Positions 1,563-23,028 of a DNA stretch of 23,256 nt are shown piece after piece. The notes under the pieces were generated by a model. The model was not told the DNA's origin and did no database searches. It worked only from the letters and a program-made list of their open reading frames with translations. How positions within the stretch are numbered: position 1 is the first letter of the stretch; the number at the start of each line of letters is the position of its first letter. The position numbers and the translations under genes are program-made. Source of the stretch: Candidatus Bathyarchaeota archaeon (GTDB lineage Archaea; Thermoproteota; Bathyarchaeia; Bathyarchaeales; Bathycorpusculaceae); assembly GCA_963811105.1 (NCBI GenBank), contig CAWEPZ010000005.1, forward strand, positions 1 through 23,256, in the 5' to 3' direction.

Positions 1563-1570
1563 CTTATAAC
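1563..1570 (-). promoter_or_regulatory. Putative TATA box for the leftward surface-protein gene
   Basis: GTTATAAG on the minus strand, about 55-60 nt upstream of ATG 1508. Confidence 0.4.
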
Positions 1571-1643
1571 CATAATTGAGATTTTCGTTACATGTCGAGT
1601 TTCGCAGTATTAGTGTTCGACAGTTGACATCTATATTAAGTGT

Positions 1644-1660
1644 TAATACTGCTTATATAT
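1644..1660 (+). promoter_or_regulatory. Putative TATA box (TTATATAT) with an upstream AATAC element for the 1768 gene
   Basis: TAATACTGCTTATATAT lies in the divergent intergenic region. Confidence 0.4.
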
Positions 1661-1767
1661 CACGATATACAATGTGAAATCCTGAACACAAAAGAGCTCA
1701 ACCATCAAAATAACTCCACCTAAGTGGCAAGTAACGAAATTGTTAAAAAAAAATAACGGTAGGAAAA

Positions 1768-2292
1768 ATGAAAACATCATACCTCACTGAAGAAGACATC
1801 GAAGAAACAGAAGAATACTTTCAACAAGCAGTAGTCATAACCAGCAAACAAAACGAAAGCTTCGAAAAAACAAAAACCCCAAAAATCAACAGCACCGTTT
1901 CCAACATTAGCACATTCCCAAAAGCTAATGATTCAGATAAGAAATTTAATCAATACCTATTAGAAGCCATAGATGAAACCTTATCATCATTGGGCGAAGT
2001 CGTAAAAAACGCCGTCATAGAACATTTAAAAAACGAATTTCAAATAAACAAAAATGATATTCCACAAAAGATATGTGATTTCTCAAAGATAGTTCACAAA
2101 GTCTTCGGTTTAGGTGCGGATAGACTGGAACTTAAAATTGTAAAAAACTTAAGTTCCAAACTTCAAGTTGACGTCAATTTAACTGAGTATGAATGGCCCC
2201 TCTCAAAGTGGATAATTAACGACGTTTCGTTTACTGAGTATGTCGCAAACTTGCGAATCAGTTACGCAAAGACAGTTGAAAAGAAGGCTTAA
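1768..2292 (+). CDS. Small helical protein, NitrOD5/DUF3227-like stand-alone output domain
   Basis: The motif FNQYLLEAIDETLSSLGE...DIPQKI.DFS.I.HKVFGLGA.RLE resembles the archaeal family found with two-component systems. It is a paralogue of 5043..5471. Confidence 0.7.
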   Translation: MKTSYLTEEDIEETEEYFQQAVVITSKQNESFEKTKTPKINSTVSNISTFPKANDSDKKFNQYLLEAIDETLSSLGEVVKNAVIEHLKNEFQINKNDIPQKICDFSKIVHKVFGLGADRLELKIVKNLSSKLQVDVNLTEYEWPLSKWIINDVSFTEYVANLRISYAKTVEKKA

Positions 2293-2418
2293 GTTTTAAC
2301 TTATTTTTTGATTAAAAAGTTAACGATTGATTCTTTTGTTTACAGAATTCGAATATATATTTAGAATTCATAACGCTTATGTTTCATTTCGCGGCTACCA
2401 CTTAACATTCGAGAGTTG

Positions 2419-4371
2419 ATGAATATCAAGCAAAAGGATAGCTCACTCATTAGCCTAAGCATCTCAGAAACTGCAAAAGAAGAAGAGAATTTCCAAGTCA
2501 TAGCTAACTCGATTAGAGACGCAGTAGTCATAGTTGACGAAAAAGGCAAAATCAGCTGTTGGAATTCAGCTTCAGAGAAACTTTTTGGATACTCAAGCAG
2601 TGAAGCCCTTGGCAAAAACATACATCAACTTGTCATCCCTAAAACAACTGGTCCTGAAGCTAAAAACCAAATAAGAACTAGCATGGAAATCTTTGCCGAC
2701 ACAGGTATGGGCTACTTCACTGTTGGAAATGTAGAGTTGGTGGGTTGCCGAAAGGATGGCTCTGAAATTTCCGTTGAGCTAACCCTTTCGCCTATAAAAA
2801 TAGCAGGCAAATGGAGCGCCATTGGAGTAATCAAAGACATTACACGCAGAAGAAAAGCTGAAGACAAATTACGAGAGGCAGAACAACGTTACCATGCATT
2901 GTTCAATCAAGCACCCGTGGGTGTTTTAGTTGTTGACCCCAAGACCACCGGGTTTGTCGAATTTAACGATCTCGCGCACAGCCAACTTGGTTACACTAGG
3001 GAAGAATTCGAAAAACTTTCTCTGGTAGAAATAGAAGTCAATAAACCGGGAAAGATTAAGAAAAACGTTGCCGAGTTGTTAAAAGCTGGAGATGGAGAGT
3101 TCGAAACAGAACATCAAACCAAGACCGGCGAAACAAAAAATGTCCTAGTAACCACAAAGACCCTCAAGCTCAAGGACACAAAGTATCTCCAATGCATCTT
3201 CCGCGACATTACAGAAATCAGGCGCGTCCAAAAATGTCTAGGCGAGAGCGAAGCAAAATATCGACAACTAGTTGAGCTTGCTCAAGAAGGCGTCTGGGTC
3301 CTCTCAAAAGACTACGAAACTGTCTTTGTCAACCCTAGGATGACCGAAATGTTGGGTTACAGCAGAAGCGAAATGGTTGGAAAAACCCTTTTTGACTTCA
3401 TGGATAACAGGGAAGTTCCATTGGCGAAGGAGTTCTTGGGAAAATATACTTGTGGAGTTAGCGGAAATTTAGAGTATGAATTTACAAGAAAAGATGGCGC
3501 CCACATCTACACCAGTATTGCGGCATCCCAAATTACTGACGATAAAGGAGATTATTTAGGTACACTTGCTCTTGTAGCCGATATAACTTTACGCAAAGAT
3601 ATGGAAACTAAGTTGGAGAAGTACTCCAAAAGTCTCGAAGAGATCGTGGACCATAAAACCAAAGAATTAGAGATGGCCCAGGTTCAATTAATCAAGTCTG
3701 AGAGGCTAGCAGCGATAGGCGAACTGTCCGGCATGATTGGTCATGACTTACGCAACCCCTTAACCGGTATAAAAAACGCAGCATATTTCCTAAAAAGAAA
3801 GAACGTTTGCACGTCTCCACAAGAAAAAGAAATGATCGAAATAATTGAACGATGCGTCGAATATTCCAACAAGATAATTAATGACCTACTTGATTTCTCA
3901 AGAGAAATTCACTTAGACCTCAAGGAAACCTCCTTACAAAATATGATAACCGAAAGCTTGGCGATGGTCAACATCCCAAGCGCAATTAAGGTTGTAAAAG
4001 ATCAAAACATCTCCGTCATCTTCTTGGCTGATGTCAACAAATTAACGCGTATTTTTGTTAATTTAGTCAAAAACGCAGTTGATGCAATGCCCAACGGAGG
4101 AACCTTAAGCATTACAAACAAACAAGAAGAAGGAAAGTTAAGAATTAACTTCGCCGATACGGGCATGGGAATTTCAGACGATGTGCTACCCAAGTTGTTT
4201 GCCCCATTATTTACTACAAAAGCCCAAGGTATGGGTTTTGGGTTGGCAATTTGCAAACGCATCGTTGAAGCCCATGGAGGAACGATAACGGTTAAGACCG
4301 CGCTAGAAAAAGGAACAACCTTCACCGTTACTCTTCCAATTGAACCAAAACTTCAATGCGGAGGTGAATAG
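2419..4371 (+). CDS. Cytoplasmic sensor histidine kinase with three PAS domains
   Basis: Three PAS/PAC repeats (WNSASEKLFGYS, FNDLAHSQLGYT, VNPRMTEMLGYS). H-box GHDLRNPL, N-box NLVKNAVDAM, G1 DTGMGI, F-box LFTTK, G2 GMGFGLAIC. No transmembrane helix. ATG at 2419, with TTG 2416 as an alternative start. Confidence 0.95.
   Translation: MNIKQKDSSLISLSISETAKEEENFQVIANSIRDAVVIVDEKGKISCWNSASEKLFGYSSSEALGKNIHQLVIPKTTGPEAKNQIRTSMEIFADTGMGYFTVGNVELVGCRKDGSEISVELTLSPIKIAGKWSAIGVIKDITRRRKAEDKLREAEQRYHALFNQAPVGVLVVDPKTTGFVEFNDLAHSQLGYTREEFEKLSLVEIEVNKPGKIKKNVAELLKAGDGEFETEHQTKTGETKNVLVTTKTLKLKDTKYLQCIFRDITEIRRVQKCLGESEAKYRQLVELAQEGVWVLSKDYETVFVNPRMTEMLGYSRSEMVGKTLFDFMDNREVPLAKEFLGKYTCGVSGNLEYEFTRKDGAHIYTSIAASQITDDKGDYLGTLALVADITLRKDMETKLEKYSKSLEEIVDHKTKELEMAQVQLIKSERLAAIGELSGMIGHDLRNPLTGIKNAAYFLKRKNVCTSPQEKEMIEIIERCVEYSNKIINDLLDFSREIHLDLKETSLQNMITESLAMVNIPSAIKVVKDQNISVIFLADVNKLTRIFVNLVKNAVDAMPNGGTLSITNKQEEGKLRINFADTGMGISDDVLPKLFAPLFTTKAQGMGFGLAICKRIVEAHGGTITVKTALEKGTTFTVTLPIEPKLQCGGE
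4360..4367 (+). promoter_or_regulatory. Shine-Dalgarno sequence for the receiver gene
   Basis: GGAGGTGA lies 5 nt upstream of TTG 4373, inside the 3' end of the kinase gene. Confidence 0.75.
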
Positions 4372-4372
4372 T

Positions 4373-4825
4373 TTGGACCAAAAATACAAAATATTACTCG
4401 TTGACGACGATGAAACCATCAGAACTACGATGATAGCAATACTCGAAGATGAAGGATACAGCGTTGACAGTGCACCCAACGGAAAAGAAGCAATTAAGAA
4501 GACCCAAGAACAAACCTACAACTTAGCGTTACTTGACATACGATTACCCGACATGGAAGGCGTAGAACTACTCGGACTAATGAAGGACAGCATTCCTCGC
4601 ATGAGGAAAATAATGGTGACAGGATTCCCATCTCTGCAGAACGCAGTTGAAGCAGTCAATAAAAGTGCAGATGCATACTTGATAAAGCCAGTTGACGTCG
4701 ATAAATTGCTCGCTACAGTCAAAGAACAGCTACAAAAGCAAGAAGAAGACAAAAAATTCAGTGAACAGAAAGTCGCTGATTTCATCGAAAGTCGAGTTAA
4801 AGAAATCTCTGTAAACCAAATTTAA
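4373..4825 (+). CDS. Stand-alone response regulator (receiver domain with a short helical C-terminal tail)
   Basis: ILLVDDD acid pocket, LLDIRLPDMEG phosphoacceptor, VTG and IKP motifs are all intact. The start was moved from 4340 to TTG 4373 based on the SD and its position just after the kinase stop. Confidence 0.93.
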   Translation: MDQKYKILLVDDDETIRTTMIAILEDEGYSVDSAPNGKEAIKKTQEQTYNLALLDIRLPDMEGVELLGLMKDSIPRMRKIMVTGFPSLQNAVEAVNKSADAYLIKPVDVDKLLATVKEQLQKQEEDKKFSEQKVADFIESRVKEISVNQI

Positions 4826-5042
4826 AAAACCTCCAAATCTTTTAACATTTTTTCAATTTTTTAAGAACCACAAAATAACTAATTGATCAACGAATTCATC
4901 AAATGCAGAAGTTTTTCTGGTAAACATAAATTGATAATAAATATTTCAAGTATTTCAGATTTAAATATCAATTTAACTGTTTGTTCATTAACGGCTGTTA
5001 GGGAAAAATAATCACCGAGAAGACTTACACGAAGGAAAATGT

Positions 5043-5471
5043 ATGAGTTTAACGACTCAAGAAGATTCCTTAATTGAATTAAAGAACGACGAAGTGACGG
5101 TTAAACATTTGAAGGAAACGCCCTCAGAAAAATTCGACAACCTTTTGATTGAGTCAATCGACGAAACGCTCACCTTGTTAGGGGAACCAGTTAAAAATGA
5201 GTTTTACCAACAGCTAAATGTTAAATTCAACATAGAAAAAACCGACATCCCACAAAGGCTGGAAGATTTCTCACATATTCTACACAAAGTTTTTGGTTTG
5301 GGCGCAAGTCGGCTTGAAGTAAAATTTTTAAGAAACCTTGATTCGAAAATTCCGGTTGGTTCCAAATGTTTTAATGTGGATTGGTCAGTTTCGACTTGGA
5401 TCGAAAAAGAAATGTCCTTTTTAAAAACCATAAAAGACAAACAAAAAGAGTTTCTAATAAATATCATGTAG
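5043..5471 (+). CDS. Small helical protein, NitrOD5/DUF3227-like; paralogue of 1768..2292
   Basis: KFDNLLIESIDETLTLLGEPVKN...DIPQRLEDFSHILHKVFGLGASRLE aligns without gaps to the 1768 protein. Confidence 0.7.
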   Translation: MSLTTQEDSLIELKNDEVTVKHLKETPSEKFDNLLIESIDETLTLLGEPVKNEFYQQLNVKFNIEKTDIPQRLEDFSHILHKVFGLGASRLEVKFLRNLDSKIPVGSKCFNVDWSVSTWIEKEMSFLKTIKDKQKEFLINIM

Positions 5472-5745
5472 CAACTTCATCCGCCACGTTCTTTTAACTT
5501 GCGACCTCTTCTATGAATAAATTTCTTTTAATTCATTTTAGAAAATGTTAAGACTTCAAAACTTCACAGCTTCTAGATCAATTCTTGAATTGAACATAAA
5601 GAGTCTTTAGCATTACAAAAAATTGTAGTACCTACCCCAAGATCCCTGCTATTGTAGAAATTACAAAAAGCAAAATAACACCAATGACGACGATTTTTTT
5701 AGTTGAGGTCTTCATTTTACTCAGTGCCTTTTAGGATTTTTGAGG

Positions 5746-6942
5746 TTATTTTTTCTTTCCCATAAACTTGTCCATAAATGATTTCTTTTGCAGCTTAGAT
5801 TCTCCAGGTTGATTGCTTAATAAATTATCTTGTGATTTGGTTTCAAGGCTTTTTTCGATTTCATTCTTTATTTTTGCCATTACTTCTTTTTCATCCGCTG
5901 AACCCTCGATGAGGAGAATGTTGTGTCCTTGAGCAATTTTTCGGGCAGTTTCGTTAAGTTGAGGAATAGCCATGAAAATAGGCACGTCCACCTTCACTTC
6001 CGAAGTTTTGTATATATAAAGAATGAGGGGTGAGGTAGTAACTTCAGATTCGCTTACAGCATGGTCAAGGGCTATAACCTTTTCTTGGCCATCAACTATT
6101 TTTCTGGCGATTAAACTAAAGTGATGTTGCATTTCACTTTTTTGCCCCATCACCAAGCCTGGAATTTCAACGGAAAATCCCAAGTTTACGAGGAGCTCTT
6201 GGATGTTTTCTAAGCTTGCGACGTTTTGCCTAATTTCTTTTTTCCTCGTCAAGTTCAATGAATACTTTGGAACATCGATGACTTTCGCTTCTTTTATGGT
6301 AAAGATCTTTGAACAACTCCGACAGACTATGTCTGATTCTGTGTTTTCGAATCTTTCTCCGCAGGATTGGCAAACATACCAACGGCCCATATTTCGGTAT
6401 TGACTTTCAACTAAGAGTTCACCGCATTTCGGGCATCGATCGTTTATGTATTTGTCTCTTTGATCAATGTGTCCACAGGGAACATGTTCAGTTAAACTTG
6501 TTTTTTGTACATTATGACTTTTGCATTTGGGACAACGATCGTGGAGAGTGAGTGTTGTTGAACCACAATTTGGACATACCGAGACTGAGTCATAAAAGGC
6601 TTTTTTAAGAATATCTAAATGTGCGAGGTTTTCCAATAGATCTTTGTTAATGACCTTTTCTTTAGCGCCTTCAAAAACATTATCGGGGCTTTGATATACG
6701 AAGCCTGCACCTTGGACAAACTTTGGAATTATTTCTTCTTTGTCGCTACATTCAAGAATTGTCCTAAGAAGGTCGCGTGAGTTAGGTTCAATGTAGGCTT
6801 CTCGCCTTTCTAGCTCTATTTGATCCTCCACATCAAATGTTTTTGTTGACTCCTGTTTCTTGTTTGGAAAAATCTTATTTAACAGTTGTTTTTGTTCTTC
6901 CGTTGACTGTGGAGTACTTGTAACTTGCGAGTTTTTTTTCAT
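5746..6942 (-). CDS. TackOD1-like multi-zinc-ribbon protein fused to a degenerate restriction-endonuclease-like domain
   Basis: CPNC, CPKC, HVPC, CPKC, CQSC and CRSC occur in TackOD1-like spacing. The C-domain LGFSVE...GQKSEMQHHFSLIA...VIALD resembles an Mrr-type PD-(D/E)xK fold. It lies 49 bp downstream of the platform gene on the same strand. Confidence 0.75.
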   Translation of the reverse strand: MKKNSQVTSTPQSTEEQKQLLNKIFPNKKQESTKTFDVEDQIELERREAYIEPNSRDLLRTILECSDKEEIIPKFVQGAGFVYQSPDNVFEGAKEKVINKDLLENLAHLDILKKAFYDSVSVCPNCGSTTLTLHDRCPKCKSHNVQKTSLTEHVPCGHIDQRDKYINDRCPKCGELLVESQYRNMGRWYVCQSCGERFENTESDIVCRSCSKIFTIKEAKVIDVPKYSLNLTRKKEIRQNVASLENIQELLVNLGFSVEIPGLVMGQKSEMQHHFSLIARKIVDGQEKVIALDHAVSESEVTTSPLILYIYKTSEVKVDVPIFMAIPQLNETARKIAQGHNILLIEGSADEKEVMAKIKNEIEKSLETKSQDNLLSNQPGESKLQKKSFMDKFMGKKK

Positions 6943-6991
6943 TTGAATGGCCTTCTTTTTTTCCGTTATTATCTTTATCCTAATTTTTCAT

Positions 6992-7819
6992 TTAATGGAG
7001 GAATAGATAGAATGCTAAACCTGAAATTACACTTAAGAGAGTAACGTGTTTTAATCCCGCCGCAAAGCTTTCCTCGTTGATTTTTCCTGCTATGAGTCCT
7101 CCGAATATGGATTCTATTAATGACGCGTGTAGAAATAGACGACTTGATTGTGCCTGGGAAAGGATTGGTTTAATGAAAGATACGCTGCTAGCTGTGGTTT
7201 GGCTTAAGGGAGCGAACATCATGTTTGAAATTACAATGATTATGAATAGAAACATGAATACGGAGAAGTAGAAAATTGCAACGTAAGGAAGGGTTTGCTG
7301 TCTTCTCTTTGTAGTCCATTCGTTTATGTTTTCAAGGTATTTGGCGGTTGAGTCAAAGATGTTGGATAAGTCGCCACCGTGTTTTCCTGCTTCATTTATC
7401 AAAACAGTTGCTTTTCTGATTAAAGGTAGATCTATTCTATCGCTAAATTCCTCAAGAGCTTCATTAAAGTTCATGCCCCAGCTCATGTGTGCCACTAACA
7501 TTTTTAGCTCAATCGTTAGCGGACCGTACATTCGGTGTGAAGCATGTTCTAAGGCAACTTGAAGGGGGATACCTGTCTTTGAGGCTGTGGCTAAGTCTCG
7601 TAGGAATTCGGGAGTTGCTTTTTCAATTTTGAGTTTCCATCTATTGTGTATGATGCTTGCTACACTTGGCGGTGCAATCCCTATTGTTAGAGCTATAATT
7701 ATCATGTAGTCTAAGGTTGGTGAAAAAAGATAGTAGAATGCGGCAACAATGAAGAAGATTAGACCTGCAATACCTGAAAGAACCGTAATGCGTTTTGTTA
7801 TTTTTTTTGTTACTCTCAT
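6992..7819 (-). CDS. Type IV pilus membrane platform protein (T2SS-F / TadC / PilC-like)
   Basis: IEKATPEFLRDLA...TGIPL..AL, YGPLT.EL, SWGMNF.EAL, GGDL and ESIFGGLIAGKI motifs, with several transmembrane segments. Confidence 0.92.
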   Translation of the reverse strand: MRVTKKITKRITVLSGIAGLIFFIVAAFYYLFSPTLDYMIIIALTIGIAPPSVASIIHNRWKLKIEKATPEFLRDLATASKTGIPLQVALEHASHRMYGPLTIELKMLVAHMSWGMNFNEALEEFSDRIDLPLIRKATVLINEAGKHGGDLSNIFDSTAKYLENINEWTTKRRQQTLPYVAIFYFSVFMFLFIIIVISNMMFAPLSQTTASSVSFIKPILSQAQSSRLFLHASLIESIFGGLIAGKINEESFAAGLKHVTLLSVISGLAFYLFLH

Positions 7820-7826
7820 TTAGATC

Positions 7827-8708
7827 TCACTTCTCGAAGGTTGACATAATCACAATCATTATTGCGCCCATTATTGGAATTCCGAGATAAGTTAGCAGGT
7901 ATAGGATTGTCGCCATACTCATGCCCGCAATTGTACCGCTTCCTATCATACCTAATGTAACAAAGAGGACTACGAAAAGGAGTGGAGCTGCAACGAGCAT
8001 CATTATATAGATTTCAGCTGTGGCTGCAAGTGACTCTAGCATCAAATCTAGTTTGCCTATTCGGTCTTTCGTTACCTTTTCTGTAGTAATTTTGAGGTAT
8101 TCTGTTGGGTTTCCTCCAGTTCTTACGGTCGCCACGTAACCTTGGAGGATTTCTCCGAGTTGATCGTTTGGTGTTAATTTGGCGTTAGCAAGGATCGAGC
8201 TCATAAGATCGCTGCCAAAAACCTCTATGTCTCTTATTACGTTACTAAATTCTAATTTAACCTCTTTTAAAGTTTCAATCTTTGCCATCGATTCAAAAAT
8301 TACGCTTGGAGGAACATTTGAGCTTGAGAGAAGAGTTAAAAAGTTGGCGATGTATGGCAAGTTCTTGTCAATTGGACCTTTTCTGTTACTTGCTTTCATT
8401 CCCGGGTAAATGTACATAACCATCAGAGTTATCAACGCGACTGAAACAGCAATTACTAATGTGAATAGGAGATTCATTATAGAAAGCATTGGAATTCCAC
8501 TTAAGAGTGGAAAGACAATAAAAGAAACTGGAATTGCAACCCCGAAAGCGATGATTGAAGTCAAAACCATAAAGGCAACATATGCCTTGAAAGCAATTAG
8601 GACACCACCCTTCTTTAGTTGAACATGAATCTCCGAAAAATGAGGGTAGAATCTCTGTAATCTTCTGTTAAGTAATTCATACGCAATGGCCCAGGGTTGA
8701 AATTTCAT
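7827..8708 (-). CDS. Second type IV pilus membrane platform protein (T2SS-F / TadC-like)
   Basis: YIYP...RKGPIDKNLPY, RDIEVFGSDL, TP, TVRTGGN and LAATAEIY motifs. Gaps to the neighbouring genes are 6-7 bp. Confidence 0.92.
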   Translation of the reverse strand: MKFQPWAIAYELLNRRLQRFYPHFSEIHVQLKKGGVLIAFKAYVAFMVLTSIIAFGVAIPVSFIVFPLLSGIPMLSIMNLLFTLVIAVSVALITLMVMYIYPGMKASNRKGPIDKNLPYIANFLTLLSSSNVPPSVIFESMAKIETLKEVKLEFSNVIRDIEVFGSDLMSSILANAKLTPNDQLGEILQGYVATVRTGGNPTEYLKITTEKVTKDRIGKLDLMLESLAATAEIYIMMLVAAPLLFVVLFVTLGMIGSGTIAGMSMATILYLLTYLGIPIMGAIMIVIMSTFEK

Positions 8709-8714
8709 TTTGTT

Positions 8715-10346: not shown

Positions 10347-10366
10347 TGAACTTCATTCCTTAAGAG

Positions 10367-10386
10367 TCCATATAAACCATGTAATT
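10367..10386 (-). promoter_or_regulatory. Putative promoter of the ATPase operon, probably giving a leaderless transcript
   Basis: AATTACATGGTTTATATGGA on the minus strand. The TATA box begins 30 nt before GTG 10346. Confidence 0.6.
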
Positions 10387-10626
10387 ATTTTTTTTATTAT
10401 TAGGAAAATGTTGCACTTGTCTTGAAGCCCTCTGGAAAGATAGCGAAAAAAAATGCTGTCCATGAGACAATTGAGTAATGACTTTTGTGTTTATTCGATT
10501 TTTAGCCTCCTTATTCTAATAGAAGGAAAAAAATTGGCCGTAAAGGAATTCTTATTGGATGAGTTACATCGAAGTCGGAGCGCCCGCAATATTCACGACC
10601 ATCAATTCTAAATAAAATTTTGGCGG

Positions 10627-16600: not shown

Positions 16601-16956
16601 ATAATAATTGACGGAGTTATTATCATATTGCCAACTGTGTCCTGCGTTATGTCTCTAATCCATAATCGCACCAATTGAGCGGGAAGCGTTCCATTGTTGG
16701 TAATGCTACAACTAATGTAGACATTTTGATTTAATACAGCTATTTCTGGGTTAGAAACTGATACAGTTGCAAGTTCAGTGTAACGATCCAAATCCAACTG
16801 TTTGGCTTGGACTGTAGTCTGTTCGAGACCAGTGTTTTGATTGAGAATAACTATGAAACTAGCAAAAACAACCATAACTATGAGTAAGAAAAATACCATG
16901 CCGAATACTGTGCCGATTCCTTTATTGTTTATTCGTAGTTTATGGTGTAAATTCAT
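10627..16956 (-). CDS. Giant (~2109 aa) pilin-like adhesin: class III signal peptide, pilin domain, 4 IPT/TIG-like repeats, QY..WYD beta repeats and Ig-like domains
   Basis: ATG 16956 gives MNLHHKLRINNKG|IGTVFGMVFFLLIVMVVFASFIVIL, followed by a minor-pilin-like ITNNG..LVRLWI..STRGN region. It has four (L/I)xPxxGxxGxxVTVxGxxF-type repeats and six WYD repeats. It is S/T/G-rich, lacks a C-terminal transmembrane helix, and overlaps the upstream pilin by 17 bp. Confidence 0.85.
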   Translation of the reverse strand: MNLHHKLRINNKGIGTVFGMVFFLLIVMVVFASFIVILNQNTGLEQTTVQAKQLDLDRYTELATVSVSNPEIAVLNQNVYISCSITNNGTLPAQLVRLWIRDITQDTVGNMIITPSIIIQPGTYIQYFNSSYVVNASSSDQFAFWFISTRGNTISAFPETNQFNGLVQDGNFPGVNAVNSTYATTSTPLQLSLTTTKPNQLIYVVVSYDDENYLTPLNSNPVLTWINRINSSDTDSEWGMNGDSTLGTYYAIKPSPGPITIYIKSTTDEISDYYCSALAFAISDVNTTSPFDKGAPQTDIGKSAMPQDKITTYNSNEFIIGALCIDSLNPDITPGTDFAEIMPVQSSYGATGEPDALPRSVWSEWAIMQNPRTNLSVNCTFTSTKNWAIIVDAVKLVVVTPSTPVSLSPSSGPVGQPVTVSGQGLAANSPLLAVFDGSQVPFSATTDSNGTIPPNAIFTVPMGVTPSNKTVTIIDKNFNYVNTTFLVTTPNITISPTNGQVGTTVTVTGSNFIDNSTININFAGNPTATNPSPIVADSTGSFSATFIFNFNDSAGINPVMASDGINSAFANFNVIPSITLNPTSGPIGSLVTVYGTGFAASQSLIITFAGATVVTNPITINTDGFGFFSAIFTIPTGQIAGAKNVVVTDANSNSATSQFAVTPSIALNPTSGNVGSTVTLSGSGFAANSAIALKFAGSTVTLGGTTSTNSSGAFTGATFTVPTWVSTWAIGSVQTVTISDAASNLGSNTYTVNTVTQSVTVAMSNSAPSATVTVNGGNPNPNTFGADGVSHSIIMFAGSPFNLSFSNSGNVRNGFIVASAFSASSISYTASVTPVTVAGFEQVQNTFSVTYNGGNAGSGDSLTLKGTYLGTAAYTIGTLNSVNGWSLSLWSDYNTAVTFPANTALSSSSQRWAINGAYSTAALTAGNNPYTQIYYNQYSFQLDYAVSGSGSPTAPTLTTTQFNSVYTPTLGNSLVTFWFDNAHSWSATNPLGGSGSSERWASRQTVSGTISVSSPTTAGTGLLTFTYYHQYLLTVNGGNGVTFGTASPTGDNWYDNGVSTTVSSNGIYNRVSGTGQRVSSWQIDSGTVSNIAATGSVSTSSVSMSTAHSVTFSSITQYLLTVNGGNGVTFGTASPTGDNWYDNGMSTTVSSNWAWGTSGSTRTSLSNWQLDGTNQNPPRQNTGTLTTSSIPMSATHTVNFVSTTQYYLTVTGGSSLTFGTASPTSDQWYDSGTSTTISSNWVWNTVSGQSRTAIVNYAIDGTNRNPARLNTGTLTTSSVSMTTSHTVSFSSVTQYYLTVSGGNGITYGTVSPTSDSWYDSGGSTTVSSNGVWSRSAGSGQRVASWNVDGGSNTVLSSTSIVTTSSISMTTYHAINFNTVTQYQVILDSGGTSALSSITSPKISGDNYWYDSGTPITLILNGVYGRSGGSGTRITGYSVNGGSNNPVSTTGTFTILNAIAISAPQTITTTTATQYQVTLDATSTSALNSITNPTISFDNYWYDSNTPVTVVLNGVWGQGSGTGTRLTGYVLNGGINNPVSTTGSVTVFSGSIANHEFVTATSVTQYQVTFTQTGVSSDAGSNMVLTLNSLPYVYNALPNNVWVDTGTSFSWASPVAGINGEQFVKTGGSGNSPIAAAATFSATYTTQYRVTFAVSPSGSGTTSPSGTNVWENAGSLPISVTANGGYYFSSWSATSGITIASPTSASTTANINAAGTITVAFTQLDHFIVTASGGGNIGTQTAGSAFSISITAKDASGNTIIGYAGTATLSDLSGAISPTSTGAFTTGVWTGSVTLTKTWTNDAITATGLGKSGTSNAFNIVAGGLSKFAVNAPASITAGTAFTLTVTAQDAYGNTVTSYSSSVGLSVSGTGSTINPTSASTTGWTAGVWTSSTVTVSAATGSGYTITANDGSSHTGASNTFNVIPLFIQPTITTKYAVASSTTLQYSVAQSNSYVVIVVMGGYYDLTSVTPPAGFTLQESQTVSNQYSAYISVNPAQASGTYTITCQGHPNTGISITVYVFTPGTYTVTHNHNSGTTSSASLTLPAGANYNIFGGSVGNGHITLSTATIDVQDSSNFSAIGHQTTQTATVTSSVSNDYVGIVGIGITRTG
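13505..13870. repeat. 105-bp near-identical direct repeat (13505-13609 and 13766-13870) inside the giant gene
   Basis: Manual alignment gives 104/105 identity with an offset of 261 bp (87 codons). The single mismatch is 13524 T vs 13785 C (Met/Val). Confidence 0.92.
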
Positions 16957-17485
16957 AGTCAAAAGCACTTCCACTTTGGGTTATTAGATGAATAGTGTAA
17001 ATTGAACCAATTTTAAGAGAAGGAACAATTACGCTTGGGTTAACAAAAAAGAGTGCTTCTTTTCCAATGTTAAGAGCATTTCCAGTAATCGATGTAGGAG
17101 AAGGTTTAACAGAAGTAATGGGGTACAAAGCTGAAATTTGACTACCTGAATAAACGCCCACGATAGCATGATTTGTGTCGTAGATGAACATGGAGTCTAT
17201 TTTTACGCTATTGGAACCTCCAGAATTAATAATGTAAACTGTCAAATTTGCTGGAGATGGCGAATAGACGACGTTTTCGAAACCGATCCGCTCTGCAATC
17301 GATTGCTGACTGTTGGATAAGGTACTAGCATAATTGTTGGTAGCAGTAGTAGTTGCATTGCTTGAATAATAATAAGCGACTGAACCAAAAAGAAGGATAA
17401 TCGCCGCTAACAAAACTGTTGCAAATATTGGACTCAGCGCACGTTTATCTTGTGACCAAACATTAGTTTTTCTCAAATACAACAC
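16940..17485 (-). CDS. Minor type IV pilin with a class III signal peptide
   Basis: DKRA|LSPIFATVLLAAIILLFGSVAYYY, followed by ERIGFE, VYIINSG and ITQSGS motifs typical of archaeal pilins. Confidence 0.88.
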   Translation of the reverse strand: MLYLRKTNVWSQDKRALSPIFATVLLAAIILLFGSVAYYYSSNATTTATNNYASTLSNSQQSIAERIGFENVVYSPSPANLTVYIINSGGSNSVKIDSMFIYDTNHAIVGVYSGSQISALYPITSVKPSPTSITGNALNIGKEALFFVNPSVIVPSLKIGSIYTIHLITQSGSAFDYEFTP

Positions 17486-17859
17486 CCAACATCAAACCTA
17501 ATACTATTCCTCTCTTTTTGCAACAATTCTAGCTGAAACTTCATTTTTCTACGTTTTCCAGCAGTTCATTAAAAGAGTTAACTAATAAACACCGTTTTTT
17601 CTAACGAAGAACAATTCAGTTAAGCAAAAATTCCGATTTCGTAAGTTGCAGGTCCTCAATAATATATTCCAAGTTTCTTTGAAGTATGCCTGTTGCCTTA
17701 GAAAGGTTGATTTGTATGTCTACTTTTGGGCTTTCAGAAAAAGGAAGATTACGATTTAGATTTTAAGACGAGACTTCTAGATTATCAAGAAAGTTATCAA
17801 ACAAACTATTAACCTGCGCTAAGAAATTTGTCGAACAACATAAAGCAAATAAAAACGCG

Positions 17860-18333
17860 TTAATTCGCTACGATTATGGATGAAGTGAAACTGCTACCTT
17901 TTGTACTTATAACAGTTAAAGAGTAAGCATTTCCTTTAGTTACGCCAGTTAAAGTAAGTTGTCCTGAACCGATTTGCACTAGGGCTCCTGATGAGGGGAG
18001 GGACTTAGAATACGGCGAAGTTGGTGATGGATTAATTGTTGTAACCACTTTTCCATTTGCATCTTTAATAATAACACTAGAGACCAAGACATTAACACCG
18101 CTTTTGCTCTCAGCATACACATTCACAGCGCTTGTTCCGGCTCCCTTAACAGTTATTGAAGCGACTAATACGGAAACTCTTTCTGTTCCTCCTGTTCCAC
18201 TGCCAGTAAGAGTTGAAAAAGTTCCACTAGTAAACATGTAAATAACTACGCTAGCAATAACTACAATTGCAATTAGAATGAGAGCTGCAAATATTGGTGA
18301 TATACCTTTTAGATTATGTCTAAAATTCTTCAA
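17860..18333 (-). CDS. Type IV pilin, paralogue of 18652..19107
   Basis: NLKG|ISPIFAALILIAIVVIASVVIYMF. The start is uncertain (track 18384); TTG 18333 gives a normal short basic leader and lies downstream of GGTGAGGAG. Confidence 0.88.
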   Translation of the reverse strand: MKNFRHNLKGISPIFAALILIAIVVIASVVIYMFTSGTFSTLTGSGTGGTERVSVLVASITVKGAGTSAVNVYAESKSGVNVLVSSVIIKDANGKVVTTINPSPTSPYSKSLPSSGALVQIGSGQLTLTGVTKGNAYSLTVISTKGSSFTSSIIVAN

Positions 18334-18613
18334 ATTTCCTATGCCGCTCCTCACCAAAGTTCTTTCGTAAAACTTTATTCCCAATTATTTGATTATAAAC
18401 TATATTTCCAATTAAGAAATATGTCCGCAGACAAAACAGAGCAAAGATAAAAACAAACAATAGTGAACCACATAGTAGGACAAATCGTCTAAAGGGCGGG
18501 ACTTATTGAAAATGAATTTAAAAAGCTGGAAAAACAAGAACAAAATGGTTCTATAAATTAAATTCCTCCCCGCTAACTCTCTTCTTGCCTTTATTAAAAA
18601 TCGTTTATTCACT

Positions 18614-18652
18614 AAAAAATAAAAAGAAAAATAAATTAGCGGAAAAACCGCT
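18614..18652 (-). terminator. Putative terminator after the first pilin gene
   Basis: A short hairpin AGCGG-TTTTT-CCGCT at the stop codon is followed by a long T-rich tract on the minus strand. Confidence 0.55.
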
Positions 18653-19107
18653 TATGTTGCTGTGAAACTTGAGCTAACGAAGTTACCGCCTTTTGCACTT
18701 ACTAAAGTGATTGTGTAGCTACTTCCTGTATTGAAACCACCGTATGCTCCGCTAATGTCTGTCAAGACGCTTGGATTTAATGCTGTTCCAGTTGTACCTC
18801 CAATTGTTACAGTTGTGAGTACATTCCCGTTGCCATCTTTGATTATAGCGCTTGTAATAGTTACTACGCTACTGCCTGTGTTTTGTGCCCATACATCAAA
18901 GCCTTTTGTAGAAGTAGAATTTCCGGCTGCAGCTTGGATTGAAACTTTTTCTTGTGCTGCTGTTCCGCCACCTGTCATAGTTGATAATGTTCCGCTTGTA
19001 AACATGTATACGACTACACCTGCGATAACTGCGATTGCAATGAGAATTAGAGTTGCGAAAATTGGTGAAATTCCTTTACGGTTCTTCATCAAACGTTTAT
19101 AATTCAT
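18652..19107 (-). CDS. Type IV pilin, probably the major pilin
   Basis: MNYKRLMKNRKG|ISPIFATLILIAIAVIAGVVVYMF. It has its own TATA box, a strong SD and a terminator, consistent with a highly expressed monocistronic gene. Confidence 0.92.
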   Translation of the reverse strand: MNYKRLMKNRKGISPIFATLILIAIAVIAGVVVYMFTSGTLSTMTGGGTAAQEKVSIQAAAGNSTSTKGFDVWAQNTGSSVVTITSAIIKDGNGNVLTTVTIGGTTGTALNPSVLTDISGAYGGFNTGSSYTITLVSAKGGNFVSSSFTAT

Positions 19108-19118
19108 TTTTTCCTTTG

Positions 19119-19180
19119 CACCTCCTTGCTTAATCGATTTAATATTTTATTCAGGTAGTTTCCTTATAAAGGACGTATTT
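19119..19180 (-). promoter_or_regulatory. Promoter (TTTATAAG) and SD (GGAGGTG) of the major pilin gene
   Basis: AAATACGTCCTTTATAAGGA at 19180-19161 and GGAGGTG at 19125-19119. Confidence 0.65.
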
Positions 19181-19542
19181 TCCAATTTGTAATTCCCAAG
19201 ATACGATTAGAGGAACCTAAAACAAGACCGTTGAAGCAAAGGCAAAATGTTGCTTTTATATTTAAAAGCGAATAACAGTGTTTCAAAATTATGTAAAGAC
19301 AAAACTGTAAAATCAAGAGTTTTAGCTATTTTAAAAAATGAGTAACTGAAAATTTTGAAAAATTATTTAATCCAATAAATACATTTGATTTATTTTGCAT
19401 TTTTATTAAAAAATTAGAATTTATTTTTTCAAAATATGAATTAGTGGTTCTCAAGTCTTATTAATCAGCCGAAGGCTTAGTAAGAAAACGCAAAAGGTAC
19501 ACTTAGCAACTCAAACTGAAAAAGGGAATAGGAGCAAAAAAT

Positions 19543-20319
19543 GTGAATTGCCCAAAATGTGATGGAGCAATCGTCTATCCTGAAGGATTAAATGGAGAAA
19601 AAATCTGCACTAAATGCGGATTAGTAATAGATGAAACTCCAATTCTCAAGAGTTTTACAAGGTGGTCACCTGAATGGCATTCGAATTGGAGTGAACAAGA
19701 TTCTGAAACACTCAAAGAATGGTTAACTACCCTTAGGGCTGTTTCATGCCAATTAAGCATTCCAAATTTTCCGTACCGGGAAGAAGCGGCTCGCACCATT
19801 CGAATACAAAATCGTCTGCTCTTCAAATCACAAAAACTCTCAAAAAGCAAAAGGGCTACAGTCGCGGCGTTAATGCATTTAATACTTAAGGAATACGACA
19901 AGATGAGATCTATCAAGGACATATCCCGAGATCTCAGTCTGGACACATCTTTAGTTATGAAACAAGCTTGGATACTCAATAAAACTTTGAAAACAGAAAA
20001 AGAACATTTGAAAATCCAGCGGAAAACAGCAATAGACTACTTACACGAAAACGCATCTAAGATAGCAGTCAATAAAGAATTATTTCACAACGCTGAAAGC
20101 ATTTTGCAAGAAATAAGGGGATCCGGTGGGAACCCAATAGGAGTGGCAGCGGGCACTTTTTACTACGTCTGCAAAAAGAAAACAAACATTTCTAAAGAAA
20201 AAATCGGAGAAACATTCGGCATTTCGGCGAGAACAGTCTATTCTAATGAGGTAAGAATAAGAAAACTATTAGCTACTAAAGAGAAAATAAAAGCTGCCCC
20301 ATTAATAATCTGCAAGTAA
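19543..20319 (+). CDS. Divergent transcription factor IIB (TFB) paralogue
   Basis: N-terminal Zn ribbon CPKC...GEKICTKCGLVID, a PEW B-reader remnant, two cyclin-like repeats (VAALMHLI and GGNPIGVAAGTFYYVC) and a C-terminal HTH (SKEKIGETFGISARTV). Confidence 0.85.
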   Translation: MNCPKCDGAIVYPEGLNGEKICTKCGLVIDETPILKSFTRWSPEWHSNWSEQDSETLKEWLTTLRAVSCQLSIPNFPYREEAARTIRIQNRLLFKSQKLSKSKRATVAALMHLILKEYDKMRSIKDISRDLSLDTSLVMKQAWILNKTLKTEKEHLKIQRKTAIDYLHENASKIAVNKELFHNAESILQEIRGSGGNPIGVAAGTFYYVCKKKTNISKEKIGETFGISARTVYSNEVRIRKLLATKEKIKAAPLIICK

Positions 20320-20467
20320 AAAACTTTACGAACTATTAAATGCAGAAAATTCCTTTACCGATTATTTTTTGCGAAAAGAACTGCAGGACTATAAAGTAAT
20401 GGTTCCGACACGCTAACTCAGTATATAAGAGAACTTGGGCAATTAACCCTTGGGTGTCAAATTCTCC

Positions 20468-20869
20468 ATGATTGCAGAAATCGAAGCGTTAAGAAAACGC
20501 ATTGATAAAATTGAAAAGCAGAAGAACGATGAAGTTTTCACATTAATAGAAATATTATCAAATGCTTCATTTTTCGGGAAAATAAAACAAGCCGGTTGCA
20601 AATACGCAAAAGAGGGCCAATGTAGCTTTTATATTCTATCAAGTGAAGCGCAAGGCAAGATTCCGATTGTTTCTACCTGCCACATTAAGCAATGTGAAGA
20701 ATCATCACTCCATTTTCACATTGAATTATCCCACATCACATGCGCCATGTGCGAAAAATCCAATCGACCAACTACACCAAAGTATGAGGCTCAAATTAAG
20801 CCAAAAAATATAAAGAAAAAAAATAAATCCCAAAAAAATAGCAAAAAAGAGAATCAAATGAGGAAATAG
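20468..20869 (+). CDS. Hypothetical Cys/His-rich protein with an N-terminal coiled coil and a Lys-rich tail
   Basis: ATG 20468. Contains EIEALRKRIDKIEK, CKY..QC, CHIKQC, HFH and CAMC. It ends 2 bp before the next gene. Confidence 0.7.
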   Translation: MIAEIEALRKRIDKIEKQKNDEVFTLIEILSNASFFGKIKQAGCKYAKEGQCSFYILSSEAQGKIPIVSTCHIKQCEESSLHFHIELSHITCAMCEKSNRPTTPKYEAQIKPKNIKKKNKSQKNSKKENQMRK

Positions 20870-20871
20870 AA

Positions 20872-23028
20872 ATGTATAAGAAAACAATAACCCTCGCAAT
20901 AACAGTTTTAATTTTAACTTCCGCATTTTTTGTATTTAACCAAAACAACACATCCTCTGCATTAAACAACCCTTCAAAACTCAACATTTACACCGGACCA
21001 ACTAGCGTGCTCGCAGACAACAATACATACAGCTGTATTTTTGTGCAGCTTCAAGATTCCTCAGGTCTACCATCCAGAGCCTTACAAGATACAACCATAA
21101 GTCTTTCATCCTCTCTGACCAACATAGGAACAGTAGATCCATTCATTACAATTCCCAAAGGAGCAACATATGCATTAGCGAACTTCAAAACCGCATTCAG
21201 CCCAGGAACAACGACAATATCGGCTTCAGCGACAGGTTTTGCAACAGTACAAGCAACTATGACGACAGTTGGTCCAATTCCGTCAGCCATAGCAGTCTAT
21301 GGTTTTCCATCAACTTTACCTGCAGATGGGAATTTACATCAAGCAATAATGCTACAATTACAGGATTCAAGTGGAAATCCTGCAAGAGCCCCTCAAGGAG
21401 GAGTACAAGTTGCCTTATCATGCTCAGACAACAGCATCGGCACAGTTTCTTCAGTCGCAACAATAAATGAAGGACAAACCTTCGCTATTGCCAATTTTAC
21501 AACAACAACAAAAGCCCAAACAGACGGAAGAGCAGAATCAGCAATAATCACAGCACTCGCTCAAGGATATACCCCCAACCAACTCACAATCACCACAACG
21601 CCCATCGCAACCAACCCCACTCAACTAAAAATCTTCACAGGTCCGCCAAAAGTTCCAGCTGATCAAAACTCATATGCAATAATCGCGGTTGAACTGCAAA
21701 ACTCAGGGGGTTTTGTGGCAGTAAATCAAACAGACATATTAGCAACTATTGCTTCAAACGATCAAAGCATATGCAAAATAGATTCAATAACGATTCCACA
21801 AACCCAAACTTATGCCTTAGCAACGCTCAACACCACCTACAAAGCAGGTTTTGCAACAATATCTGCTGTAGCCACAGACCTTCTATGGGACCATCAAACA
21901 GTAAACACCTTCGGATTTACTCCCTCCAAGATAGGCATATTCTGTGTTCCAGTAAACTTACCTGCCGATAACAAAACCTATCAAGCAATCCAAGTCCAAC
22001 TTCAAGATGCACAAGGTCGACCCGCAAAAGACCCCCAAGCCAACGTCAACGTAAACCTTTTCTCCTCTCAACCAACCGTTGGAGTAGTCAGCTCGACACT
22101 TACGATTCCATTTGGACAAACACAAGCCACAGGGTCATTGACTGTATCAAATGCGCCGGGCACAACAACGATAGCTGCCCAAGCCTCAGGCTACACAACT
22201 GGACAAGCACCGATTTCAACCACTCTCATCGATTACACACCCCTCCAAATAACCGTTACAACGAGTCCAAATAGCGTAGCCAATGGAGCCACAGCAGTGA
22301 TAACAGCCTACGTCACAGCTAATGGTGGCCCAGTGACCGGAGCTACAGTCACTTTTACGTCAGATAATGGTGGAACATTTGGATCGACTATTGAGCAGGG
22401 AAACGGTTACTACAATGCAGGCTTTACAGCCCCAAGTTTCTCTACAACAACGAGTTGCACTATTACTGCAAGCGGTTCAAAAATTGGTTATTTAAACGCA
22501 CAAGGAACCACTCAGATAACTGTCACTCCAGCACCAGCCCCAACCGCAACCCCAACACCAAACGTAACGGCAACGCCAACCCCAACACCTACAGTCAACA
22601 CTTCAACTTTAACCTTCAAAATAACAGATGCCCAAGGAAGAGCATTAAACGACACGCTTGTCATCTCAACCAATCAACCGTCGGGGAGTCAAACCCTAAC
22701 TGAAATCACAAACGCAACAGGTTACGTAACCTTCCAAAACGCCTTAGCGGGAACATACACCTTCAAAATTATTAAAGAAGGATACCCACAGACCAACAAA
22801 ACACTAGATTACAATGGTCAACCATTAACGCTTAACATACCTCTATCGGCCAACACTAACAGCGGATCAAACTCGAACAACAACTTGTTTGTCACAGTGG
22901 CGGTAATAGTGGTTGCTGCCGCTATAGGAGTAGTTGCTGTCTTGCTGTTTACAAAGCGAAGGAAGTCACCGAACATAAAGAATCTGCAGCAACTCAAAAA
23001 ACAAATGGAAAGCAAAAAGAAATTCTAA
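20872..23028 (+). CDS. Membrane-anchored surface protein with four invasin/Ig-like repeats, a further Ig-like domain, a PT linker and a C-terminal transmembrane helix
   Basis: Signal peptide; four P(S/T)xx...(P/L)AD...(Q/E)LQ(D/N)xxG repeats; PAPTATPTP linker; LFVTVAVIVVAAAIGVVAVLLF-TKRRK anchor. Confidence 0.88.
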   Translation: MYKKTITLAITVLILTSAFFVFNQNNTSSALNNPSKLNIYTGPTSVLADNNTYSCIFVQLQDSSGLPSRALQDTTISLSSSLTNIGTVDPFITIPKGATYALANFKTAFSPGTTTISASATGFATVQATMTTVGPIPSAIAVYGFPSTLPADGNLHQAIMLQLQDSSGNPARAPQGGVQVALSCSDNSIGTVSSVATINEGQTFAIANFTTTTKAQTDGRAESAIITALAQGYTPNQLTITTTPIATNPTQLKIFTGPPKVPADQNSYAIIAVELQNSGGFVAVNQTDILATIASNDQSICKIDSITIPQTQTYALATLNTTYKAGFATISAVATDLLWDHQTVNTFGFTPSKIGIFCVPVNLPADNKTYQAIQVQLQDAQGRPAKDPQANVNVNLFSSQPTVGVVSSTLTIPFGQTQATGSLTVSNAPGTTTIAAQASGYTTGQAPISTTLIDYTPLQITVTTSPNSVANGATAVITAYVTANGGPVTGATVTFTSDNGGTFGSTIEQGNGYYNAGFTAPSFSTTTSCTITASGSKIGYLNAQGTTQITVTPAPAPTATPTPNVTATPTPTPTVNTSTLTFKITDAQGRALNDTLVISTNQPSGSQTLTEITNATGYVTFQNALAGTYTFKIIKEGYPQTNKTLDYNGQPLTLNIPLSANTNSGSNSNNNLFVTVAVIVVAAAIGVVAVLLFTKRRKSPNIKNLQQLKKQMESKKKF

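Follow-up and report, generated by a model that had tools for sequence, protein, structure and literature searches.

The stretch of DNA analyzed here, referred to as the window, is contig CAWEPZ010000005.1 (C5) in its full length of 23,256 bp, and belongs to the genome of a Candidatus Bathyarchaeota archaeon (G000; 3.49 Mb in 15 contigs, 96.7% complete) whose nearest relatives stem from soil, peat and permafrost metagenomes. Open reading frame (ORF) listing, combined with Pfam and NCBIfam scans of the 17 window proteins, delineated a candidate type IV pilus locus made up of three blocks: the pilus machine, on the reverse strand from 19107 to 5746; a group of regulators on the forward strand at the left end, convergent to the machine operon; and a group led by a paralogue of the transcription factor TFB, on the forward strand at the right end and divergent from the major pilin. 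A sequence-only reading of this DNA had proposed a self-regulating adhesion-pilus system, and every gene it named was recovered where it had placed it; its remark that no housekeeping gene interrupts the locus was likewise borne out within the window, and its pointer to Bathyarchaeia also proved right. The pilus machine comprised the following genes:

18652-19107, reverse strand: candidate major pilin of 151 residues (TIGR02537, E 6.1e-10, 38.4 bits), with paralogues on contigs C13 and C7
17860-18384, reverse strand: pilin 174 (TIGR02537, E 2.3e-8, 33.4 bits)
16940-17485, reverse strand: minor pilin p181 (TIGR02537, E 1.2e-4, 21.5 bits), overlapping the start of the giant gene
10627-16974, reverse strand: giant pilin-like adhesin of 2115 residues with a class-III-like N-terminus (..NNKG/IGTVFGMVFFLLIVMVVF), read by eye
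8715-10346, reverse strand: assembly ATPase of the VirB11/FlaI family (T2SSE, E 1.7e-32; PilB3_C, 1.2e-5, at the C-terminus)
7827-8708, reverse strand: N-terminal half of the platform protein (T2SSF, 1.5e-9), matching ArlJ positions 11-236 of 555
6992-7819, reverse strand: C-terminal half of the platform protein (T2SSF, 1.6e-19), matching ArlJ positions 192-453 of 465
5746-6942, reverse strand: TackOD1 protein of 398 residues (PF18551, 87.8 bits against a cut-off of 32), the final gene of the ATPase operon

The regulators at the left end were:

1768-2292, forward strand: sm174, a small helical protein with a disordered N-terminal tail and no Pfam match at E<=0.01; first gene of the sm-kinase-REC-sm unit
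2416-4371, forward strand: cytoplasmic histidine kinase (PAS_9, 1e-41, in three stretches; HisKA, 6.6e-15; HATPase_c, 1.7e-27)
4340-4825, forward strand: receiver-only regulator, REC (Response_reg, 7.7e-28), with a conserved C-terminal helical extension
5043-5471, forward strand: sm142, a small helical protein with no Pfam match, 48% identical to its paralogue sm174

The block at the right end consisted of:

19543-20319, forward strand: TFB paralogue of 258 residues (Zn_Ribbon_TF, 5e-6; NF001658, 37 bits against a cut-off of 384)
20450-20869, forward strand: o139, a protein of 139 residues with a coiled-coil N-terminus, a basic tail and eight Cys/His positions invariant in a 14-row alignment
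20872-23028, forward strand: Big surface protein of 718 residues (Big_1/Invasin_D3, 9.4e-16; CarboxypepD_reg, 7.2e-9; Ig repeats)

Together, the pilins, the giant pilin-like adhesin, the ATPase and the split platform make up a predicted type IV pilus machine. The genetically encoded parts by which archaeal type IV pili are recognized were found, namely a VirB11/FlaI ATPase, a TadC/FlaJ platform, class III pilins (three, each at or above the 20-bit cut-off of TIGR02537, the model of the archaeal class III N-terminal domain) and an A24 prepilin peptidase, the last of these being the only match in the genome and lying outside the window (C3:81431-81718, 50 bits against a cut-off of 26.5). The scans pointed neither to an archaellum, with 402.8 bits to the FlaI model against a cut-off of 550 and no accessory family (ArlC/D/E, F, G, H, X) among the 17 proteins, nor to a Ups pilus, with UpsA at 37.8 bits against 130, UpsB at 21.1 against 70 and UpsF at 51.4 against 400. 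The closest solved chain to the ATPase was GspE of A. fulgidus (2oap, 383 bits), followed by FlaI (254) and CpaF (148). A quick maximum-likelihood tree, a comparison that the sequence-only reading had suggested, placed the ATPase in a single Bathyarchaeia clade of 32 rows on a long stem, with a support of 100 in the SH-like approximate likelihood-ratio test (SH-aLRT).

Linkage was examined in samples of 201 genomes of the order and 401 genomes of the class. An ATPase scan with one genome per species returned 63 loci, and the 33 loci (in 31 assemblies) whose ATPase shared 60% identity or more across a minimum of 200 residues were kept as related loci; L079, which has the same gene order, was excluded by this filter. 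Upstream counts were taken from the 21 loci with a full 10-kb flank and downstream counts from 25. Both platform genes occurred in 33/33 related loci, in each case as two single-T2SSF genes approximating the N- and C-terminal halves of ArlJ/FlaJ, and TackOD1 in 32/33. Upstream of the ATPase, the pilin was found in 19 of the 21 loci, p181 in 20, a giant-like gene in 20, the TFB paralogue in 16, o139 in 13 and Big in 15, whereas the downstream flanks held TackOD1 in all 25 loci, sm in 22, REC in 15 and the kinase in 11. In the usual order, Big, o139 and TFB diverge from a series of pilin, p181, giant gene, ATPase, the two platform genes and TackOD1, which converges with sm, kinase, REC and sm. 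The TFB block is inverted in L045 and L058, still abutting the pilins.

Two of these genes were additionally followed beyond the related loci. Relatives of TackOD1 occurred in 161 of the 201 genomes of the order, and all 18 of the places sampled (in 17 genomes) lay within ~3 kb of platform genes, with the ATPase seen at 16 and the remaining 2 ending at a contig edge. The TFB paralogue was rare, being present in 8 of the 201 genomes of the order and in 11 of the 401 of the class, 7 of the latter among 40 members of the same genus. It adjoins pilin genes in G027, G165, G087, G030 and G173, the contigs of G198 and G190 being too short, and the o139 gene always comes after the TFB gene. The sequence-only reading had named separation of the kinase, TFB and TackOD1 genes from the pilus genes in related genomes as the finding that would speak against it; TackOD1 instead stayed close in all but one of the related loci and TFB lay beside pilins in every informative contig, while the kinase recurred as a facultative rather than a core partner. 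The linkage of the locus parts is thus real and conserved. TackOD1 is inherited with the machine as a core component, sm and the TFB-o139-Big triad are frequent companions, and REC and the kinase are facultative.

On contig C13, at ~108-140 kb (108000-140400; L007, L008), the host genome carries all of these parts a second time in rearranged form, with 50-90% protein identity. This copy holds sm, REC, TackOD1, both platform genes, the ATPase (90% identity), a fragmented giant gene and pilins and, further along, a REC-5xPAS kinase, another sm and an inverted Big-o139-TFB triad. Its giant gene runs across three or more frames (with ORFs of 1212 and 106 residues, and fragments) and is either a pseudogene or a product of long-read frameshift error. 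TrmB-like and PadR regulators and a PQQ-repeat protein are also encoded there. A further comparison, of window positions 2-10384 with L045 (CAWIFU010000001.1), gave 97.4% DNA identity over the regulator and machine half (94-99.6% per 500 bp). This identity drops to 87% in the final 380 bp and is lost at the ATPase promoter; the giant gene cannot be aligned, and the pilins and TFB block are merely 74-85% identical. The break looks like a recombination breakpoint at which a pilin/adhesin cassette may have been swapped.

Two side observations concern the related loci as a group. The TFB-linked locus of two genomes has another pilus ATPase locus, a distant one (38-44% identity), directly next to it (L029, G165 C12, 8157-12346; L070, 19526-21600), and pilus loci seem to cluster together. 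In L015/L069, L049, L055 and L059, the match to the ATPase, platform or TackOD1 is spread over several frames, which probably reflects homopolymer errors of long-read metagenome-assembled genomes and not gene decay.

The promoters of the locus provided a second kind of evidence. The features concerned, together with two that adjoin them, were:

19164..19177, reverse strand: signature TACGTCCTTTATAA upstream of the major pilin, followed by GGAGGTG ahead of the start codon
17583..17596, reverse strand: signature AACGGTGTTTATTA upstream of p181
10371..10383, reverse strand: signature TACATGGTTTATA upstream of the ATPase gene, located by genome scan
19437..19461, forward strand: TFB promoter box TGAATT-N6-GTTCTCAAG-N3-TTAT, aligned in 12 loci and unlike the pilus signature
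18613..18651, reverse strand: terminator-like hairpin GCGG-TTTTT-CCGC with a T-run, directly 3' of the major pilin gene, read from the sequence
18412-18612, reverse strand: orf66, without relatives outside the window, between the terminator-like hairpin and a TATA-like box

When the motif AC-N4-TTTAT[AT] was sought within 200 nt upstream of genes in the related loci, it was found at the three pilus units (pilin 15/19, p181 17/22, ATPase 19/26) and was nearly absent from the other units (TFB 0/12, sm 0/26, REC 1/19, TackOD1 0/20, Big 0/14). The aligned consensus was ..WAC-N4-TTTATAAG-N2-AAC upstream of the pilin, AATACCTAGTTTATTA upstream of p181 and TTACATGGTTTATA..TTGACTCT upstream of the ATPase, where a block TTACA.GGTTTATA..TT.ACTCT was conserved in 27 aligned regions. 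A stricter pattern had 67 matches in the 3.49-Mb genome, 4 of them at the promoters of pilin and p181 on C5 and C13, and a scan with a variant added both ATPase promoters (C5, C13) and an orphan pilin paralogue on C7. The pilus promoters carry variable bases at -4 to -2 and mostly G at -1. A background set of 218 TATA-like boxes ahead of long ORFs, which must include many non-promoters, was A-rich at -4 to -2 (40-46% A) with G at -1 in 15%. Over 84 residues, the orphan pilin on C7 (~2243-3130) shares 69% identity with the 151-aa pilin, and it has the signature GAAACTCAGTTTATAAGCAAAC, with a second copy of the signature 560 bp from the first.

The box upstream of the TFB gene (~25 nt) was the sole match to its strict pattern in the 3.49-Mb genome. 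The C13 copy is preceded by a variant of it, and more distant TFB copies lack the box. The label of a self-regulating system given by the sequence-only reading was not supported, as the motif common to the pilus promoters is missing from the promoter of the TFB gene. Elsewhere in the genome, three copies of a gene of ~307-318 aa (C3:40071, C4:8745 and C11:314755; N-terminus ..SWSVEARVFHIIDDSEIELRPAEIARKLH..) share an identical upstream sequence, CCCTAACGGAGTTTATATTTTTTGG, and may represent a multi-copy element with a winged-helix-turn-helix-like protein.

Amongst the adjoining features, the major pilin gene is probably monocistronic. The true start of pilin 174 probably lies within the listed ORF, because a TATA-like ATAGTTTATAA was seen 27 nt ahead of the listed TTG. 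Similarly, orf66 is probably not a real gene, since it lacks outside relatives and sits between the hairpin and the TATA-like box.

We favor, at a rough probability of 55%, the reading that the locus is an accessory, patchily distributed type IV adhesion-pilus island of soil and peat Bathyarchaeia in which three transcription blocks are inherited together, and in which the TFB paralogue and the receiver would act on the pilus in the way set out further below. The alternative that has to be weighed against it is that the pilus operon and TackOD1 alone form a functional unit, and that TFB-o139-Big and sm-kinase-REC-sm are neighbors by descent that regulate other things. Several observations weigh on that side or against the favored reading in general. 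The related loci form a single ATPase clade of narrow phyletic range, mostly of one genus (TFB in 7/40 members and in G000), so that the locus counts are not independent of one another, and the conserved order may owe much to shared descent. The kinase (11/25) and the receiver (15/25) are facultative and, with 16 HisKA and 16 REC matches in the genome, finding one kinase in 23 kb is not rare. The sm family cannot be regarded as pilus-specific, because it is multi-copy, widespread (151 of the 201 genomes of the order) and often located far from the pilus locus. G120 (98% complete) has this pilus subtype, yet a search at E<=1e-15 gave no TFB paralogue, so such a pilus need not have one, and the TFB block of the C13 copy lies 19 kb away from the pilins. 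Amongst the promoter evidence, the background set is crude and the motif is absent at some promoters of TFB-bearing loci. Finally, no RNA runs containing the locus sequence were found, the matches being 20 DNA rows with shares of at most 0.18.

Against descent as the whole explanation, the linkage persists at 50-70% protein identity, where intergenic DNA can no longer be aligned, and through inversion of the TFB block (L045, L058), a rearranged duplication and a recombination breakpoint. In informative contigs the TFB paralogue was never found away from pilins, and the two pilus loci, which make up ~1.6% of the genome, hold 2 of its 16 HisKA and 3 of its 16 REC matches. Mere neighborhood by descent is thus regarded as the less likely account, although one to be taken seriously, and the island of three co-inherited blocks remains our preferred reading.

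The TFB paralogue is unusual in structure. Its zinc ribbon scored 26.4 bits to PF08271, just below the cut-off of 29, and its four cysteines align with those of canonical TFBs and of the TFIIB ribbon 1pft. When seven such paralogues were aligned with the three canonical TFBs of the genome, ~60 residues of the B-reader loop and B-linker were absent from all seven, with PEW..W and an LKEW remnant as all that is left of this region. Residues 61-212 match NF001658 profile positions 128-274 at 37 bits (positions 124-296 for the C13 copy), and the alignment with the three canonical TFBs spans both cyclin repeats and the C-terminal helix-turn-helix (HTH) region. The protein is accordingly predicted to keep the ribbon and both cyclin repeats with the HTH region, without the B-reader loop and B-linker. 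In TFB and TFIIB, the B-reader and B-linker serve start-site selection and promoter opening.

The second member of the triad, o139, has invariant residues C50, C58, C77, C82, H88, H90, C98 and C101. It had no Pfam match, and a search of a protein atlas gave no lead (best score 0.76).

These features leave room for a TFB paralogue that acts negatively or competitively by forming unproductive TBP-promoter complexes, or that serves only its own operon (o139, Big). In favor of such a role, the lost region is the one needed for start-site selection and promoter opening, and the conserved promoter box of the TFB gene is unrelated to the pilus signature. On the other hand, the ribbon that recruits RNA polymerase appears intact, the protein is paired with the conserved, cofactor-like o139, and in most loci its gene is divergent beside the major pilin promoter. 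We consider either role improbable, and infer instead that the locus TFB may read the pilus signature. In G120 (L050), with the pilus and no TFB, the motif was missing at the pilin and ATPase and kept at p181; this is a single case, and for most other loci "without TFB" means only that no TFB lies within the 10-kb flank.

Comparable arrangements have been described. The sole experimentally demonstrated case of such logic is TFB3 of Sulfolobus, a truncated TFB paralogue without the B-finger that controls type IV pili. The tfb3 gene is not known to be encoded inside the ups operon. Sulfolobus TFB3 is also missing the HTH and the greater part of the core (PMC6101591), whereas the protein described here is predicted to retain the two cyclin repeats together with the HTH region. 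TFIIB homologues are the commonest predicted regulators in archaeal type IV pilus loci (PMC4858521), where arCOG01981 and the single-cyclin arCOG05559 of Pyrobaculum and Thermoproteus likewise represent TFB-family genes inside a pilus locus. By description, arCOG01981 has a zinc finger and two cyclins, with no deletion noted in the portion of PMC4858521 drawn on, whereas the present TFB is without the B-reader loop and B-linker and additionally belongs to a fixed set of three genes, the others encoding o139 and an adhesin.

The surface proteins suggest what the machine is used for. The giant adhesin has a conserved N-terminal domain of ~180 aa (34-49% identity across related loci), at least three "PSSGPVG" Ig-like repeats and seven "TQY" repeats of ~90 aa, the remainder beyond the N-terminal domain being variable in length. 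It had no Pfam match and a weak match to the NCBIfam PGS Ig-like domain. The p181 gene, present in 20 of the 21 loci with a full upstream flank, always lies directly before the giant gene. The Big protein has an N-terminal signal-like segment and a C-terminal membrane anchor. Just beyond the locus, a surface protein of 487 aa (84-1547, reverse strand) with a long Pro/Thr/Ser-rich linker, also present in L045, ends in a "TQY..LT" repeat resembling those of the giant adhesin.

The TackOD1 protein had a predicted model (mean predicted local distance difference test, pLDDT, 79.5) consisting of a helical N-part, a multi-zinc-ribbon array and a C-terminal alpha/beta domain. Foldseek matched this last domain to the PD-(D/E)xK proteins AF1548 (1y88, E 6.8e-6), Cdn1/Can2, EndoMS, MspJI and Bax1. 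The protein is thus modeled to end in a PD-(D/E)xK-like fold, newly recognized here. In the alignment, the cysteines and residues D293, K312 and E346 are invariant. Catalysis by this fold appears doubtful, because position 310, two residues ahead of the lysine, where the (D/E)xK motif calls for an acidic residue, holds Y or F instead.

These properties bear on whether the machine is mainly an adhesion pilus at all, or would serve DNA exchange or uptake or surface display, in the manner of Ups/Ced or the bindosome, with TackOD1 handling nucleic acid at its base. The nuclease-like fold with its conserved D293, K312 and E346 is in line with such a role, the zinc-ribbon array has been likened to the PriA insert that positions a DNA-unwinding wedge (PMC5847659), and the Sulfolobus TFB paralogue activates pili along with a DNA importer (PMC6101591). 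The missing acidic residue detracts from this, as does the fact that the Pfam and NCBIfam scans of the 17 proteins turned up neither a DNA translocase nor a Ced-like gene nor a binding protein; the BasE model scored 218.8 against a cut-off of 1000, and two large surface proteins with Ig repeats point to attachment. We accordingly judge a main role in DNA traffic or display to be improbable and retain attachment as the more likely use of the pilus.

TackOD1 (arCOG06883) has already been recorded in thaumarchaeal type IV pilus loci (PMC4858521; PMC5847659), which resemble the present locus in combining a VirB11-family ATPase, a platform and a cysteine-rich TackOD1. The Bathyarchaeia loci differ in a platform that is split in two genes, in an ATPase that forms its own long-stemmed clade, and in the additional TFB paralogue, Cys/His protein, adhesins and module of kinase, receiver and NitrOD5-like proteins. 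Their TackOD1 also adds the C-terminal PD-(D/E)xK-like fold, which goes unmentioned in the portions of PMC4858521 and PMC5847659 drawn on. Amongst other pili, the bacterial Tad/Flp systems are similar in that TadB and TadC are two platform genes with one T2SSF domain each and the ATPase is related to CpaF, but the pilins and ATPase of this locus are of the archaeal FlaI/GspE2 type.

The left-end block encodes a candidate pair of kinase and receiver. HisKA and HATPase_c of the kinase scored above their cut-offs, HisKA being the best of the genome's 16 matches, and an H-box, GHDLRNPL, was read from the sequence. The start of the REC gene overlaps the end of the kinase gene by 32 nt, and D66, T94 and K116 of the receiver are invariant in a 17-row alignment. 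Receiver-based control of type IV pili is known from the Pil-Chp system (PilG/PilH), to which the proposed action of the stand-alone receiver on the pilus motor would be analogous; the present locus differs in having neither a CheA-type kinase nor a chemoreceptor.

The small proteins that flank this pair belong to a family with 88 unnamed relatives, all without Pfam domains. An AlphaFold2 model of sm142 (mean pLDDT 80.7) showed an all-helical domain of ~100 residues after a disordered tail, and its best fold match in the PDB was the uncharacterized PH0832 (2p9x, probability 1.0, E 0.08); a search of the family profile against PDB sequences returned nothing meaningful. At E<=10, Pfam gave only noise for the sm proteins, o139 and orf66, bar a faint NitrOD5 match. 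True NitrOD5 (PF11537) was not found in the host genome and scored just above the cut-off in 5 of 81 genomes of the order. Aligned with a profile built from those five proteins, the sm family profile gave an hhalign probability of 98.2% (E 3.2e-14, 80 columns), while 6 of 32 members matched PF11537 weakly (best 13.3 bits against a cut-off of 27; best E 0.022). By virtue of the strong profile-profile match at scores below the Pfam cut-off, the sm proteins are best classed as divergent, superfamily-level relatives of NitrOD5 and not as members of it, which agrees with their description as output-domain-like in the sequence-only reading.

The company kept by the sm domain in other genomes also links it to signaling. 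In 3 other Bathyarchaeia genomes it stands at the N-terminal end of PAS(-GAF) histidine kinases (886-1219 aa), and in 2 others it precedes a CBS pair, at the following positions:

L104:3970-7629, L105:1317-4445 and L106:3993-6653; L107:1787-2764 and L108:1544-2515: sm-domain fusions (PAS(-GAF) kinases, CBS pairs)

Because of the fusions with PAS kinases, sm174 and the locus kinase may be seen as a split version of such a fusion. NitrOD5 is similarly small, helical, multi-copy, mostly stand-alone and at times fused to signaling domains (PMC5847659); the sm domain differs in being fused to PAS kinases, at their N-terminus, and to CBS pairs instead of receivers, and in that one of its subfamilies occupies a conserved pilus neighborhood. 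Fusions of REC with TackOD1 and with NitrOD5 are on record in Thaumarchaeota, in the same survey that names both domains and in which most archaeal receiver-only regulators have no conserved neighborhood (PMC5847659). Of 342 TackOD1 relatives comparable in length, the best 120 contained no receiver domain, so the argument from REC-TackOD1 fusion rests on the literature and not on this lineage.

Altogether, these observations can be assembled into a mechanism, which is put forward tentatively. In the first block, the pilins, p181 coupled to the giant adhesin, the ATPase, the split platform and a cytoplasmic TackOD1 would form the filament machine, with prepilins cut by the genome's single A24 peptidase encoded elsewhere. 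In the second, usually divergent from the pilins, the TFB paralogue would keep the ribbon that recruits RNA polymerase and the cyclin core that binds TBP and the TFB recognition element (BRE) and, possibly aided by o139, could be an initiation factor private to the three pilus promoters, which carry WAC-N4-TTTATW in place of the usual A-rich stretch upstream of TATA boxes. In the third, the cytoplasmic PAS kinase would phosphorylate the receiver-only regulator, and the phosphorylated receiver would act on the pilus motor or the TFB module by protein contacts with the NitrOD5-like and TackOD1 adaptors and not by DNA binding. Protein contacts are suggested because NitrOD5 and TackOD1 are fused to receivers in Thaumarchaeota, and the sm domain to kinases. 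The complete scheme, in which a sigma-factor-like TFB and a metal-binding cofactor drive a three-locus pilus regulon via this signature while the kinase and receiver steer the motor through the adaptors, is one that we regard as doubtful as a whole.

One further explanation for the island, an origin as a mobile element, was rejected because the Pfam and NCBIfam scans of the 17 proteins revealed neither an integrase nor a transposase and the GC content of the contig (0.405) is near that of the remaining contigs (0.41-0.44).

In the sequence-only reading, the combination of genes was not recognized as a characterized system. That holds for the combination, which was not found in print; the links of TackOD1 and of TFIIB homologues to pilus loci had already been catalogued (PMC4858521; PMC5847659). 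In the literature searched, which did not extend to the supplementary tables of these two papers and in which other papers were judged by title and opening of the abstract, nothing was found on a B-reader-less TFB with o139 and an adhesin, on the block of NitrOD5-like proteins, kinase and receiver, or on a shared promoter signature. New here are the predicted relationship of the sm proteins to NitrOD5, the reduced TFB, the shared pilus promoter signature and the modeled PD-(D/E)xK-like end of TackOD1.

Most archaeal response regulators are bare receivers. The presence of a receiver, a kinase and relatives of receiver-fused domains beside a concrete machine provides testable protein pairs and a candidate target for two-component signaling. 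If the sigma-like TFB and the adaptor signaling proposed above were true, this would be the first defined non-chemotaxis target for the "output-less" two-component systems of archaea. For private promoter specificity of TFB paralogues, the locus additionally offers a natural test, in which the factor is defined, a 13-nt signature recurs at three units and negative controls are built in. Bathyarchaeia abound in soils and peat as uncultured organisms, and an attachment organelle with swappable adhesin cassettes bears on how they may colonize particles or partners.

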